A stretch of 4,277 nt of DNA from a virus (Duplodnaviria > Heunggongvirae > Uroviricota > Caudoviricetes). The DNA lies in the IMG/VR virus record IMGVR_UViG_2734482566_000010; one strand, given 5' to 3'. Shown here piece after piece: positions 610 to 4,277 of the stretch (within the stretch, counting starts at the first letter, position 1; each line of letters opens with the position of its first letter). A program made the translations under genes and the position numbers. The notes below the pieces were generated by a model. It was not told where the DNA came from and ran no database searches. It saw only the letters and a list, made by a program, of their open reading frames with translations.

Positions 610-983
610 TGCGCCATGAGTTTATTTTACCTTATCCGCCGACGGTGAATACTTACTGGCGACGTCGTGACAACACATATTTTGTATCAAAAGCCGGTGA
701 GCGTTATCGCCGGGATGTGGCGCTTATTGTCCGTCAGCAGCGACTGAAATTAAGCCTGTCCGGAAGACTGGCGATAAAGATTATTGCAGAGCCACCGGAT
801 AAGCGCCGTCGTGACCTGGACAATATCCTGAAAGCACCACTGGATGCACTGACACATGCGGGAGTGTTAATGGACGATGAGCAGTTTGATGAAATCAATA
901 TCGTTCGTGGTCAGCCAGTATCTGGTGGACGTCTGGGGGTGAAGATTTACCCCATAATGCATGAAGAGCAGGTCAAAAAATGA
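609..983 (+). CDS. rusA: RusA-family crossover junction endodeoxyribonuclease (Holliday junction resolvase), 124 aa
   Basis: Strong AGGAGG at 593-598, 10 nt before the ATG. Protein shows the RusA signature LPYPP..N.Y, VS..G..YR, PD.RRRDLDN (catalytic Asp pair), DAL..AG...DD.Q and GGRL, collinear with E. coli RusA as I recall it. Confidence 0.9.
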   Translation: MRHEFILPYPPTVNTYWRRRDNTYFVSKAGERYRRDVALIVRQQRLKLSLSGRLAIKIIAEPPDKRRRDLDNILKAPLDALTHAGVLMDDEQFDEINIVRGQPVSGGRLGVKIYPIMHEEQVKK

Positions 984-1801
984 AACTGGAAGATTTACCG
1001 AAATACTACTCCCCAAAATCCCCTTGCCTGACCGATGCATCGGCCTCAACGTCAAAAGATGCGCTGAGTATCACTGATGTGATGGCCGCGCAGGGCATGA
1101 CACAGAATCGGGCTGAGATGGGGTTTTCTGCGTTCCTGGGGAAAATGGGCATCAGTATGAATGACAGGGCGCGGGCAACAGAATTACTGGCAGATTATGC
1201 ACTCAGTCGGTGCGATCGTGTGGCGGCGTTGAGAAAACTTCCGGCAGAAATAAAACCGGTAGTGATGCGCATTATGGCTTCGTACGCTTTTGAGGATTAT
1301 GCCCGCAGCGCAGCGAGTAAAAAGCAGTGCCCTTGTTGCTATGGGGAAAAATTTATTGAAAGCGTAGTTTTTACAAACAAGGTCCAGTATCCGGATGGTA
1401 AGCCGCCGGTATGGGCAAAGTGTACGAAAGGTGTGTATCCGTCTTACTGGGAAGAATGGAAAAAAGTCAGGGAGGTGGTAAAAGTTGCCTGTCCGGAGTG
1501 TGGCGGAAAGGGTGAGGTTTCCACCGCCTGTAAGGATTGCCGTGGGCGTGGTGTCGCCATTCATCGTGAAGAGTCGGTAAAACGTGGTATGCCTGTTATC
1601 AGAGACTGCCAGCGTTGTGGTGGTCGTGGCTATGAAAGACTACCATCAACGGAGGCATTTAATGCTATATGCGAGGTGACAAACCAGATAACACGCGCGT
1701 CATGGGAAAAAACAGTTAAGAAATTTTATGATGCGCTGGTGACCCGGTTTGATATTGAAGAAGCATGGGCTGAGCGGCAGTTAAAAAAGGTAACTAGGTA
1801 A
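980..1801 (+). CDS. Q: Late-gene antitermination protein Q (lambda Q family), 273 aa, with expanded Cys-rich central module
   Basis: ATGA overlap with the rusA stop. N-terminus (..SPKSP....TDVMAA.GM....FGK...S.ND...) and C-terminus (CxDCxGxG...CxRCxGxGY.R.P.....W..TVK..YDALV......V.R) align with lambda Q as I recall it. Followed immediately by a PR'-like promoter. Confidence 0.85.
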   Translation: MKLEDLPKYYSPKSPCLTDASASTSKDALSITDVMAAQGMTQNRAEMGFSAFLGKMGISMNDRARATELLADYALSRCDRVAALRKLPAEIKPVVMRIMASYAFEDYARSAASKKQCPCCYGEKFIESVVFTNKVQYPDGKPPVWAKCTKGVYPSYWEEWKKVREVVKVACPECGGKGEVSTACKDCRGRGVAIHREESVKRGMPVIRDCQRCGGRGYERLPSTEAFNAICEVTNQITRASWEKTVKKFYDALVTRFDIEEAWAERQLKKVTR

Positions 1802-1806
1802 CAAGG

Positions 1807-1846
1807 TTGATTTTTCCGGAATCTGTGGTAAATTCGTTATAACGAT
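1807..1846 (+). promoter_or_regulatory. Late promoter PR' with Q-utilisation pause element (-35 TTGATT 1807-1812, -10 TAAATT 1829-1834, AACGAT 1841-1846)
   Basis: 16-bp spacer. The -10 hexamer and the downstream ACGATGGG with 7-nt spacing are identical to lambda PR' and its sigma70-dependent pause site as I recall them. Sits directly after Q. Confidence 0.75.
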
Positions 1847-1881
1847 GGGCGTTTTATGCCTGACGTTAGAAGAGTTTCTAC

Positions 1882-1905
1882 AACCCGCCGCCGAGCGGGT
1901 TTTTT
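1882..1905 (+). terminator. Intrinsic terminator (tR'-like) ending a short PR' leader transcript of about 65 nt
   Basis: Stem AACCCGC (1882-1888) / GCGGGTT (1895-1901), loop CGCCGA, T-run 1900-1905. Confidence 0.7.
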
Positions 1906-2025
1906 ATGACTGAAATCGCGTCAGTACAGTAAACGCGCTGGTGGCGGTGAATACCTGTCTTTCAGCTTGCTGGCTTTTTCGACAAGAGTTATTGGTGTGT
2001 CACGTTAACCGGAAAAGGAAAAGAC

Positions 2026-2223
2026 ATGCTAAAACAGCAGGATATGACAGAAACCGCCAGAGTGGTGTTTAATGAATTAAGCGTTACCGAACCGGCGACA
2101 GTCGGGGAGATAGCGCAGAATACTTACCTTTCACGCGAACGCTGCCAGTTAATACTGACCCAGCTGGTTATGGCGGGTCTGGCAGACTATCAGTTCGGTT
2201 GTTACAGACGCCTTCCGCAGTGA
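2026..2223 (+). CDS. small hypothetical protein (65 aa), putative helix-turn-helix DNA-binding protein
   Basis: ATG 2026 preceded by AAGGA at 2015-2019 (6-nt spacer). Segment ATVGEIAQNTYLSRERCQLILTQLVMAGL resembles an HTH/winged-helix recognition unit. Stop codon lies inside a terminator hairpin. Confidence 0.5.
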   Translation: MLKQQDMTETARVVFNELSVTEPATVGEIAQNTYLSRERCQLILTQLVMAGLADYQFGCYRRLPQ

Positions 2224-2233
2224 AGGCTTTTTT
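2210..2233 (+). terminator. Intrinsic terminator overlapping the stop codon of the 65-aa ORF
   Basis: Perfect 6-bp stem GCCTTC (2210-2215) / GAAGGC (2222-2227), loop CGCAGT, followed by TTTTTT at 2228-2233. Confidence 0.7.
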
Positions 2234-2250
2234 ATTTGTGGTAAATGGGC

Positions 2251-2281
2251 GGCTGGTGGGTGTTAGGGGCACCCACCAGCC
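2251..2281. repeat. 12-bp perfect inverted repeat (GGCTGGTGGGTG / CACCCACCAGCC) with 7-nt spacer
   Basis: Arms 2251-2262 and 2270-2281 are exact reverse complements. No U-tract follows on either strand, so it is not an intrinsic terminator. Confidence 0.6.
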
Positions 2282-2393
2282 ATCTGCTCATGCGTTGGGT
2301 TCACAAGCAAACCTCAGGCCCACTGCTTTGCGCAAAAGCAGAATGAGCCTATCAGAGACAGGCTTAATGATCCATGCTTAATACTGTAAAAAT

Positions 2394-2683
2394 NNNNNNN
2401 NNNNNNNNNNNNNNNNNNNNNNNNNNNNNNNNNNNNNNNNNNNNNNNNNNNNNNNNNNNNNNNNNNNNNNNNNNNNNNNNNNNNNNNNNNNNNNNNNNNN
2501 NNNNNNNNNNNNNNNNNNNNNNNNNNNNNNNNNNNNNNNNNNNNNNNNNNNNNNNNNNNNNNNNNNNNNNNNNNNNNNNNNNNNNNNNNNNNNNNNNNNN
2601 NNNNNNNNNNNNNNNNNNNNNNNNNNNNNNNNNNNNNNNNNNNNNNNNNNNNNNNNNNNNNNNNNNNNNNNNNNNNNNNNNNN
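2394..2683. other. Run of 290 N (assembly gap or masked sequence)
   Basis: Directly visible. Nothing inside can be annotated; ORF-track segments translated as X are artefacts. Confidence 1.
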
Positions 2684-3475
2684 GAAATCATGATGCGTGA
2701 ACGCTTCAGTGTGCTGAACCATATTATCTGGGCGAAGCCGTCCGGACGCTGGAACGGATGCAACAAGGAAAGCCTGCGGGCGTATTTCCCCGCCACAGAG
2801 CGCATTCTGTTCGCGGAACATTATCAGGGGCCGTATCGTCCGAAAGATGCCGGGTATGCGGCGAAGGGCAGTGCACTGAAACAGCATGTGATGGCCCCGC
2901 TGATTTCTTACTTTCGTGATGCGCGAGCTGCCCTGGGGATAACGGCAAAACAGATTGCAGATGCCACAGGAAAGAAAAACATGGTGTCGCACTGGTTCAG
3001 TGCCGGTCAGTGGCAGTTGCCGAATGAAAGCGATTATCTGAAATTACAGGCGCTGTTTGCCCGGGTGGCAGAAGAGAAGCATCGGCGTGGTGAACTGGAA
3101 AAGCTCCACCACCAGCTGGTGGATACGTATACCTCACTGAACCGGCAGTATGCGGAGCTGCTGAGTGAATATAAACATCTGCGGCGGTATTTTGGCGTGA
3201 CGGTGCAGGTGCCGTATACCGATGTGTGGACGCATAAACCGGTGCAGTTCTATCCCGGGAAACATCCGTGCGAAAAACCGGCAGAAATGCTGCAGCAGAT
3301 AATCAGCGCTAGCAGTCGTCCGGGTGACCTGATTGCAGATTTTTTCATGGGGTTGGGTTCGACAGTGAAAGCGGCACTGGCGCTCGGGCGTCGTGCAATT
3401 GGCGTTGAGCTGGAGACTGAACGTTTTGAGCAGACGGTTCGGGAAGTACAGGATTTAGTCAGCCAGAACGGATGA
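2684..3475 (+). CDS. DNA methyltransferase, beta-class N6-adenine/N4-cytosine type (N6_N4_Mtase-like), 5' end lost in the N-run
   Basis: C-terminal HPCEKPAEMLQQIISASSRPGDLIADFFMGLGSTVKAALALGRRAIGVELE matches the HP.xKP...GD.V.DPF.GSGTT...LGR..IG.E SAM-binding block (motif X + motif I) of beta-class MTases. N-terminal visible part has the IIWAKP motif. No DPPY-type catalytic motif in the visible 261 aa, so it must lie upstream in the gap. Frame is open from the first non-N base. Confidence 0.8.
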   Translation, partial: EIMMRERFSVLNHIIWAKPSGRWNGCNKESLRAYFPATERILFAEHYQGPYRPKDAGYAAKGSALKQHVMAPLISYFRDARAALGITAKQIADATGKKNMVSHWFSAGQWQLPNESDYLKLQALFARVAEEKHRRGELEKLHHQLVDTYTSLNRQYAELLSEYKHLRRYFGVTVQVPYTDVWTHKPVQFYPGKHPCEKPAEMLQQIISASSRPGDLIADFFMGLGSTVKAALALGRRAIGVELETERFEQTVREVQDLVSQNG

Positions 3476-3477
3476 TA

Positions 3478-3506
3478 TTGAAGAATTAATTACGCGTCGT
3501 TATTAT
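3478..3506 (+). promoter_or_regulatory. Putative sigma70 promoter for the tRNA array (-35 TTGAAG 3478-3483, -10 TATTAT 3501-3506)
   Basis: 17-bp spacer; -10 lies about 10 nt upstream of the first tRNA 5' end. Confidence 0.5.
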
Positions 3507-3515
3507 GCGGCTCCC

Positions 3516-3591
3516 GGCCCTTTAGCTCAGTGGTGAGAGCGAGCGACTCATAATCGCCAGGTCGCTGGTTCAAATCCAGCAAGGGCCACCA
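3516..3591 (+). tRNA. tRNA-Ile2 (anticodon CAU, ileX/ileZ-like; formally CAU could also be Met)
   Basis: Hand-folded cloverleaf: 7-bp acceptor GGCCCTT/AAGGGCC, D-arm GCTC..GAGC, anticodon loop CTCATAA (CAT at 3549-3551), T-arm GCTGG-TTCAAAT-CCAGC, encoded CCA. Close to E. coli ileX as I recall it. Confidence 0.85.
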
Positions 3592-3598
3592 TCACATA

Positions 3599-3675
3599 CC
3601 GCCATTAGCTCATCAGGAAAGAGCGCCAGCCTTCGAAGCTGGCTGCGCGGGGTTCAAGTCCCCGATGGCGGTCCA
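3599..3675 (+). tRNA. tRNA-Arg (anticodon UCG)
   Basis: Acceptor CCGCCAT/ATGGCGG (7 perfect bp), U8, D-arm GCTC..GAGC, anticodon stem CCAGC/GCTGG with loop CTTCGAA (TCG at 3633-3635), T-arm CGGGG-TTCAAGT-CCCCG, encoded CCA. Confidence 0.8.
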
Positions 3676-3688
3676 TTATCTGCATCAT

Positions 3689-3746
3689 GCGTTGTTAGCT
3701 CAGCCGGACAGAGCAATTGCCTTCTAAGCAATCGGTCACTGGTTCG
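3689..3746 (+). tRNA. tRNA-Arg (anticodon UCU, argU/argO-like), 3'-truncated after GGTTCG of the T-loop; probable pseudo-tRNA
   Basis: Acceptor 5' strand GCGTTGT, D-arm and anticodon arm ATTGC-CTTCTAA-GCAAT are intact (TCT at 3723-3725) and homologous to argU up to GGTTCG. No complementary T-stem 3' strand, no ACAACGC acceptor 3' strand and no CCA downstream. Confidence 0.6.
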
Positions 3747-3766
3747 CTTTTGCGGGCCTTTTTTTT
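3741..3766 (+). terminator. Intrinsic terminator built on the remnant T-arm of the truncated tRNA
   Basis: Stem GGTTCGC (3741-3747) / GCGGGCC (3752-3758), 7 bp with two G-U pairs, loop TTTT, then an 8-T run at 3759-3766. Confidence 0.6.
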
Positions 3767-3963
3767 AAATGTCTCACAATTCAGACGGTTGACAGTTGTC
3801 TGTTTTGCGGGGAGTTTGTTAAAAGAAACTGGCATGGTGAATCCCCCTGTGCGGAGGGGCAATCAGCGAGTAGGTATATGGGATAATCGCGGATTCAGGT
3901 GCTGGTACTGAATTCACCGGGAGGCACCCGGCATCATGCAATGGCACATAGCGCCACTCTCCA

Positions 3964-3986
3964 GCCCTCTCCGGAGGGGCTTTTCT
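3964..3986 (+). terminator. Putative intrinsic terminator ending a possible small RNA
   Basis: GC-rich palindrome CCCTCTCCGGAGGGG followed by CTTTTCTG. Confidence 0.45.
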
Positions 3987-4170
3987 GTGCCGGATACATC
4001 ACAGTTTCTGGAACCTTAGGTACTACAGTATCAGTCAGGGTGCTATATTTTCAGATGTGATGAAAGCCTGTCAGCAGGCAGGGCGTATCGGAAATGACCC
4101 AGTAGAGAAAACGTTGACTCAGATACCGGTGCTGAGTTACCGGGAAACCGGCATCACATGACCGCTATCC

Positions 4171-4277
4171 TGAGGTGTACTGGCAATAGCGGACACTACC
4201 ATTTGTTCTTTTTTTAAGCAGCCATCTGATGATATTTTTCCCTGAAGGCTGCCGGGGAGATATTCCCCAGACGAGAG
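4171..4277 (-). mobile_element. IS3-family insertion sequence, right end (IRR), continuing beyond the window
   Basis: Terminal sequence TGAGGTGTACTGGCAATAGCGGACAC has the TG...CA terminus and the GCAATAG.GGACAC core resembling IS3 inverted repeats. A transposase C-terminus is encoded just inside it on the minus strand. Confidence 0.7.
4214..4277 (-). CDS. IS3-family transposase (OrfB) C-terminal fragment, partial at window edge
   Basis: Minus-strand frame reads ...SRLGNISPAAFREKYHQMAA then stop (4214-4216). The LG..SP..F motif is typical of IS3-family DDE transposase C-termini. Stop lies 43 bp inside the IR terminus. Confidence 0.65.
   Translation of the reverse strand, partial: SRLGNISPAAFREKYHQMAA

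Follow-up and report, generated by a model that had tools for sequence, protein, structure and literature searches.

A scaffold gap of inexact length probably hides the N-terminus of an intact prophage adenine methyltransferase gene of the M.EcoGI/M.EcoGII family

The stretch of DNA studied here, referred to as the window, comprises 4,277 nt of IMG/VR record IMGVR_UViG_2734482566_000010 (Caudoviricetes), given as one strand from 5' to 3'. Between two IS-derived ends it carries genes for RusA and a Q-type antiterminator, a small ORF, a methyltransferase (MTase) gene interrupted by a run of N, tRNA genes and an sRNA gene:

1-230: multi-copy IS sequence, which we take to be an IS2-like terminus that includes the minus-strand start of orfA
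Between this IS2-like end and RusA: tail of a replication-region gene
352-609: ORF of 85 aa, with sub-threshold Pfam matches only
609-983: RusA
980-1801, plus strand: Q-type late antiterminator of 273 aa (Pfam PF03589 Antiterm, E=6e-55; PHROG 127/25523, anti-termination protein Q-like)
1807-1834, plus strand: putative pR'-like promoter, recognised by reading the sequence (TTGATT, 16-nt spacer, TG-n-TAAATT, i.e., an extended -10)
1882-1907, plus strand: intrinsic terminator (tR'-like), a 7-pair stem with 5 GC pairs followed by TTTTTT
2026-2223, plus strand: ORF of 65 aa, possibly winged-helix (PHROG 331, E=1e-37)
2210-2237, plus strand: another terminator-like hairpin followed by a T-run; it overlaps the stop codon of the 65-aa ORF
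2251-2282: 14-bp hairpin between the 65-aa ORF and the MTase gene
2374-2393, plus strand: start of the MTase gene, ATG CTT AAT ACT GTA AAA AT (MLNTVK...), the annotated CDS start in three homologous loci (L001, L002, L003)
2394-2683: N-run of 290 nt, in our reading standing for 247 nt (residues 7-89, with motif IV TDPPYF and LKPAGSLYLF)
2684-3475, plus strand: readable part of the MTase gene, residues 90-352 and stop codon (IIWAKP, TRD, motif X HPCEKP, motif I DFFMGLGST)
3478-3506, plus strand: sigma-70-like promoter (TTGAAG, 17 nt, TATTAT) that precedes the tRNA genes and corresponds to the 'pT' annotated in phage 933W
3516-3591, plus strand: tRNA with CAU anticodon (ileZ / tRNA-Ile in relatives; ARAGORN; Rfam, 72.5 bits)
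3599-3675, plus strand: tRNA-Arg (UCG), argN (ARAGORN; Rfam)
3689-3746, plus strand: 5' 58 nt of a third tRNA gene, tRNA-Arg (UCU), argO, shortened by a 39-nt deletion relative to contig L122 (see below)
3803-3992: STnc100-family sRNA (Rfam, 123.6 bits; gathering score 47)
4172-4277: multi-copy IS sequence, presumably an IS3-family transposase C-terminus encoded on the minus strand (...SPAAFREKYHQMAA and stop)

The IS sequence occupies the first ~230 nt and the last ~105 nt, and queries with positions 1-620 and 3750-4277 match thousands of sites in E. coli genomes. Another IMG/VR contig, IMGVR_UViG_2690316284_000005 (L122; 4235 nt), breaks at nearly the same ends as the window. The repeat ends and the matching breaks of L122 mark the window as a repeat-bounded draft contig, in all likelihood a short IS-bounded scaffold of a lambdoid (Stx-phage-like) Escherichia prophage.

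Only one N-run occurs in the window and, as a sequence-only reading of this DNA had supposed, it hides the N-terminus of the MTase. An ORF of 261 aa is present at 2690-3475, the frame of which is open back to the first readable base at 2684, yielding 263 readable residues. This readable part matches Pfam N6_N4_Mtase (PF01555) with 92 bits (cut-off 26.7) over profile positions 71-219 of 221, i.e., the N-terminal third of the domain is missing from it. The readable motifs follow in the order IIWAKP, HPCEKPAEML (motif X) and DFFMGLGST (motif I, FxGxG), with the TRD ahead of motif X, and this order, together with the PF01555 match, bears out the beta class assigned earlier. PF01555 was the only family matched by the MTase, and the FxGxG motif lies C-terminally, in contrast to the alpha-class, Dam-like enzymes with a PF02086-type domain. 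The reported lack of a DPPY-type motif IV also held, since [DNS]PP[YFW] was absent from all six frames of the readable window.

The sequence-only reading had further pointed out that the ATG at 2374 is out of frame with the MTase if the length of the run is exact and, indeed, with the run counted as 290 nt, the ATG is in frame 0 and the MTase in frame 1. Homologous loci were collected by megablast with region 1800-3800; of the 5426 complete E. coli genomes, 3390 contain this region, as do 292 phage records, most of them from Stx2-converting phages. An exact-pattern scan of IMG/VR added 120 loci. In E. coli 55989 and in an O121 strain (L001, L002), 247 nt separate the flanks of the N-run, and this spacing also occurs in a homolog of E. 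albertii (94% identity), found by an exact 22-mer at the gene start. Among the 115 loci that span the hidden stretch, it measures exactly 247 nt in 113, 248 nt in one and 249 nt in one, the latter two both being frameshifted, and none of the 115 contains an N-run or anything near 290 nt at this position. Contig L122 is 100% identical to the window over 4-2393 and 2684-3746, with 247 nt between these segments, and four further contigs (L097, L088, L119, L083) possess a right flank that is 100% identical to the window and the same 247 nt as L122.

A stretch of 247 nt puts the ATG at 2374 in frame and yields a 352-aa product (MLNTVKISS...TDPPYF...), so that the sibling contig restores the gene completely. 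The 43 extra nt by which 290 exceeds 247 displace the reading frame by one position, and this is exactly the mismatch seen between the ATG at 2374 and the MTase. The hidden 247 nt are predicted to encode, in frame, ISSCELINADCLEFIRSLPENSVDLIVTDPPYF..., and the reconstructed protein would carry TDPPYF at residues 34-39 (DPPY at 35-38), followed by LKPAGSLYLF. TDPPYF is found within the 247 nt of all five identical-flank siblings, as well as in 94 of the 95 full-length homologs, and motif IV was probably rightly thought to be concealed by the run. The full-length sibling protein matches PF01555 with 144 bits, from profile position 1 to 219.

A repeat that exceeds the reach of short reads is bridged by scaffolders with an N-run, the arbitrary length of which (290 nt, for example) is an estimate from insert size with errors of tens of bases. 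The length of such a run is an estimate, and arguments on reading frame across scaffold gaps are unsafe. The explanation that we favour, and that as a whole we regard as very likely, is an inexact scaffold gap, about 43 nt too long, inside an intact 352-aa gene of the M.EcoGI/M.EcoGII family that starts at the ATG at 2374.

Alternatively, the run could be exact, in which case the 5' third of the gene would contain 43 extra bases (by insertion or duplication), the frame would be shifted and the gene would be a pseudogene. Taken at face value, the two frames indeed differ. Truncation of the gene is not rare: 12 of the 107 MTase copies (~11%) are truncated by frameshift or nonsense (L008, L020, L034, L040, L050, L073, L074, L093, L111, L114, L123, L028), and the +1 and +2 indels mentioned above lie in this very stretch. 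In PHROGs, the N-terminal and C-terminal halves of the MTase form families of their own, as does a 50-aa remnant of its C-terminus, and these data suggest that the gene decays frequently in resident prophages. The 39-nt deletion in the neighbouring tRNA gene, which is private to the window, may likewise point to a decaying copy. However, more than 249 nt was seen in none of the 115 homologs, all five contigs whose right flank is 100% identical to the window combine the 247-nt spacing with an intact ORF, and N-runs such as one of 290 nt are generally insert-size estimates. An exact run is, therefore, improbable in our opinion, and so, to about the same degree, is a true disruption of this copy in general.

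With regard to the origin of the gap, the hidden stretch has matches of at least 99% identity in 963 complete E. coli records vs 138 for a piece of the same length from the C-terminal half. The MTase gene is carried by 1915 of the 5426 complete E. coli genomes (~35%), with up to 6 copies per genome, and five IMG/VR contigs end within its first ~415 nt. We infer that the gap lies where it does because this is the most conserved part of a multi-copy gene, which short reads would fail to resolve. A per-column diversity profile over 83 unique loci also indicated a slightly more conserved 5' third, but these loci had been picked by the start-codon 22-mer and, because of this selection bias, the profile was replaced by the unbiased match counts.

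The closed gene allows a comparison with characterised enzymes. M.EcoGII is a beta-class enzyme of 349 aa from a prophage of E. coli O104:H4 (C227-11), in which DPPY lies at the N-terminal side, the TRD in the middle and FxGxG at the C-terminal side; it methylates adenine in dsDNA, ssDNA and RNA regardless of sequence context (Murray et al., 2018; PMC5778455). Its paralog M.EcoGI, identical at 333 of 349 positions (16 positions differ), is likewise non-specific (PMC5778455). The reference sequence of M.EcoGII was taken from Supplementary Table S1 of PMC11551740, where it is printed with OCR errors. The sibling reconstruction is identical to this printed sequence at 324 of 349 residues and to the protein of locus L080, which equals M.EcoGII apart from the OCR errors, at 328 of 348 (~94%), while for the readable part alone the figure is about 239 of 259 (~92%). 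Residues 1-120 are identical to M.EcoGII and all 20 differences come after residue 147, within the TRD/linker region and the catalytic part towards the C-terminus. The two proteins also share the DPPY-TRD-FxGxG architecture, similar lengths (349 vs 352 aa), the MLNTVKISS start and a position as prophage orphan. They differ in the C-terminal tail (...DLVSQNG in the reconstruction instead of ...DLIV) and in a Ser313Leu change in motif I; a likeness in function is predicted from the sequence identity. The readable residues are, furthermore, identical to the E. coli O121 homolog at 254 of 263 positions and to the O104:H4 locus L003 at 246 of 260. M.EcoMV (EC958_1545) is 99% identical to M.EcoGI, and M.EcoMV and M.Eco95JB1I/II are prophage enzymes of ST131 and O111 strains that are listed as non-specific, or predicted to be so, and as silent (PMC4659465, PMC6602927). 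M.EcoGI, M.EcoMV and M.Eco95JB1I/II belong to the same family and reside on lambdoid prophages, and their connection with the window runs via M.EcoGII and L003. A sequence search of the PDB returned no solved structure for the M.EcoGII family, the best matches being other beta-class MTases at E = 1e-25 or weaker.

From these comparisons the gene is assigned to the beta-class, SAM-dependent N6-adenine DNA MTases of the M.EcoGI/M.EcoGII family, i.e., it would be an already known, ordinary prophage MTase gene. This family, to which the commercial enzyme EcoGII belongs, resides in the late operon of lambdoid/Stx prophages. The sequence-only reading had ventured no specificity; with ~94% identity to M.EcoGII, methylation of adenine in any context is predictable, the activity itself being known from the literature (PMC5778455).

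It is conceivable that the gene is intact but functions differently from M.EcoGII, either as a sequence-specific enzyme, through its changes in the TRD and linker, or in a weakened or inactive form, through the Ser-to-Leu change in the FxGxG loop. All 20 differences are indeed located after residue 147, and motif I, at 3310-3336, reads DFFMGLGST in just 6 of the 95 full-length copies, whereas DFFMGSGST is found in the other 89 and in M.EcoGII; the lineage of the window thus carries Ser313Leu in the glycine-rich, SAM-binding loop. However, the changed residue is an 'x' position of FxGxG, and M.EcoGI is non-specific in spite of its 16 differences from M.EcoGII (PMC5778455). Homologs of the M.Eco95JB1I/II type, at ~93% similarity, are treated as non-specific too, albeit by prediction (PMC6602927). 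Residues 97-110 and 116-140, which form the proposed dimer interface (PMC11551740), are unchanged. We consequently consider a divergent function unlikely, and an enzyme that resembles M.EcoGII in its activity remains the preferred reading.

The MTase was described earlier as an orphan, and this description holds: a restriction endonuclease was found neither among the ORFs of the window (RusA, Q, 65-aa ORF, MTase, 85-aa ORF) nor in the annotated homologous loci. The arrangement thus differs from that of a type II restriction-modification system, where the gene of the cognate endonuclease is adjacent, and corresponds to that of the M.EcoGI/M.EcoGII family, orphans on lambdoid prophages. Four annotated loci repeat the succession of Q, hypothetical ORF, MTase and three tRNAs, and they likewise lack an endonuclease.

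Upstream of the MTase lies a late-control region. The counterpart of Q is labelled 'antitermination protein' in homologous E. coli loci. The putative pR'-like promoter scores 8/12, which is below the threshold of the consensus scanner; its hexamers and TG are invariant in five aligned loci, where one spacer base and the bases just upstream vary. About 65 nt past the predicted transcription start follows the tR'-like terminator, which folds at -24.1 kcal/mol (z = -2.9). In Stx phages pR' has been described as constitutive, its transcript ending immediately downstream in the absence of Q (PMC7547250), and a comparative paper on pR' leaves the MTase unmentioned (PMC6266700). The 65-aa ORF has a weak match with TrmB (E=0.0026), below the Pfam cut-off, and its counterpart is a hypothetical protein in annotated E. 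coli loci and a TrmB-family regulator in the RefSeq record of phiP27. This is the true first ORF after pR'/tR' and the MTase gene is the second. The earlier designation of the MTase as the first Q-dependent late product is, therefore, correct in that it placed the gene in a presumably Q-controlled late region, but the MTase is preceded by the 65-aa ORF and two terminator-like hairpins.

Some further features of this region deserve mention. The hairpin at 2251-2282 is a perfect, GC-rich and very stable 14-bp structure (GGCTGGTGGGTG...CACCCACCAGCC) without a T-run, and may serve for processing or as a non-canonical terminator. Segment 2200-2375 as a whole folds at z = -3.6 relative to shuffled sequences. 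The predicted pR' transcript (1841-1907), ending at the first terminator, would be an RNA of ~65 nt with a 5' hairpin, to which no Rfam family was matched. By position it is analogous to the 6S RNA of lambda and to the StxS sRNA reported for Stx phages (PMC7547250).

The pR'-like promoter and the two terminator-like hairpins ahead of the MTase gene are consistent with silence in the lysogen. We propose that in the lysogen transcripts from pR' would stop at the terminators and the MTase, harmful if constitutive, would not be made. Upon induction, Q-modified RNA polymerase would read through the terminators and the MTase would be expressed. It would then methylate adenines across the replicating phage DNA (blanket m6A), and progeny genomes covered with m6A may resist many adenine-methylation-sensitive restriction systems in the next host. 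The MTase is probably a late-expressed anti-restriction methylase, of which we infer both the dependence on Q and the anti-restriction role. Self-protection of phage DNA from restriction was proposed by Murray et al. (PMC5778455) and was one of the two roles considered in the sequence-only reading. The other, epigenetic modification of the host, is unlikely because such enzymes are silent in lysogens and harmful if constitutive: M.EcoGI and M.EcoGII are unexpressed in the lysogen and their constitutive expression is deleterious (PMC5778455), and M.EcoMV is RT-PCR-negative (PMC4659465). Among the accessible papers, Q dependence or protection of phage DNA has been found for no member of the family, and nothing relevant was found on expression in the phage or on evidence for anti-restriction. 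The anti-restriction role inside the phage is presumed, and this applies to the family in general rather than to the window in particular.

In more than 100 loci the MTase gene immediately precedes three phage tRNA genes of the same cassette, and M.EcoGII is known to methylate rA in RNA in vitro (PMC5778455). That an MTase made late in infection also modifies phage or host RNA (the adjacent tRNAs, late transcripts), or else that the N-run has its true length and conceals an insertion of 43 nt, is a pair of options to which, taken jointly, we give very little credence, and a DNA-directed, late-expressed methylase with an inexact gap in its gene is retained as the preferred reading.

As to the start of the gene, the MTase CDS of every annotated homolog begins at the ATG equivalent to 2374 (MLNTVKISS...), and in the window an in-frame TGA (2368-2370) lies two codons upstream of this ATG. 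The earlier conclusion that the start must be inside the gap, which would leave the ATG at 2374 to something else, followed from frame arithmetic under the premise of an exact run and can practically be dismissed, since the 247-nt spacing brings this ATG in frame, annotated homologs start there, the sibling sequence has no in-frame ATG, GTG or TTG from the ATG to the DPPY codons 35-38, the PF01555 profile begins at residue 29, and a start downstream of DPPY would yield a catalytically dead protein. The analysis shows the start and frame of the gene as well as its identity, architecture and orphan status.

The surroundings of the gene are mosaic. Homology to most Stx2 phages with other Q types begins exactly at the terminator at window position 1882 and, therefore, terminator, ORF, MTase and tRNAs form a cassette that can be exchanged behind different Q/pR' modules. 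Conversely, an exact look-up of the Q protein yielded an identical 273-aa Q in ten NCBI genomes (L127-L136), where it is followed by a module without MTase. In these ten genomes DUF3927, two TolA-like ORFs and a holin take the place of the MTase/tRNA cassette behind Q. This mosaicism shows the segment from tR' to the lysis genes to be a hot spot where cargo is exchanged.

The same cassette of terminator, small ORF, MTase and ileZ-argN-argO occurs in phage 1720a-02 (AGR48369.1), phiP27 and the '45-kb' Stx2a phages, with a DNA identity to the window of 94% in 1720a-02 and in the Stx2a phages, and of 86% in phiP27. The MTase of 1720a-02 (L004), which has been named as very similar to M.EcoGII (PMC5778455), shares 245 of the 263 readable residues with the window. 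A 'transcriptional regulator and DNA methylase' has been noted between q and the tRNAs in the 45-kb Stx2a phages and is absent in the 61-kb group (PMC8456039). These phages differ from the window in that they have other Q/pR' modules and carry stx2 after the tRNAs, whereas in the window an STnc100-type sRNA and then an IS follow and no stx is present. Phage 933W has pR', terminators and ileZ-argN-argO in the same order, but its Q is from another family, and both the 65-aa ORF and almost the whole MTase gene have been lost. The phage keeps the last ~110 nt of the latter upstream of ileZ (L126, NC_000924.1, 3970-4120; 92% identity to window 3365-3475), and its annotated tRNA promoter 'pT' follows just after this relic. 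The arrangement in 933W looks like a deletion derivative of the MTase-bearing cassette. T4 Dam, P1 Dmt and M.EcoVT2Dam are comparable in being orphan phage adenine MTases thought to shield phage DNA from restriction, but these enzymes are alpha-class (FxGxG before DPPY), GATC-specific, and belong to another Pfam family and genomic position.

At the 3' side of the cassette, ARAGORN detects three tRNAs in L122 vs two in the window. The argO gene of the window is shortened, relative to L122, by a 39-nt deletion between the short direct repeats GGTTCG and GGCTCG. The deletion junction was encountered in none of the other ~135 loci, nor in viral or metagenome contigs, and represents either a private mutation or an assembly error. 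The STnc100-type sRNA sits just 3' of the tRNA cassette, i.e., in the place of stx in Stx phages, and a second, partial and sub-threshold STnc100 match is present at 4031-4219.
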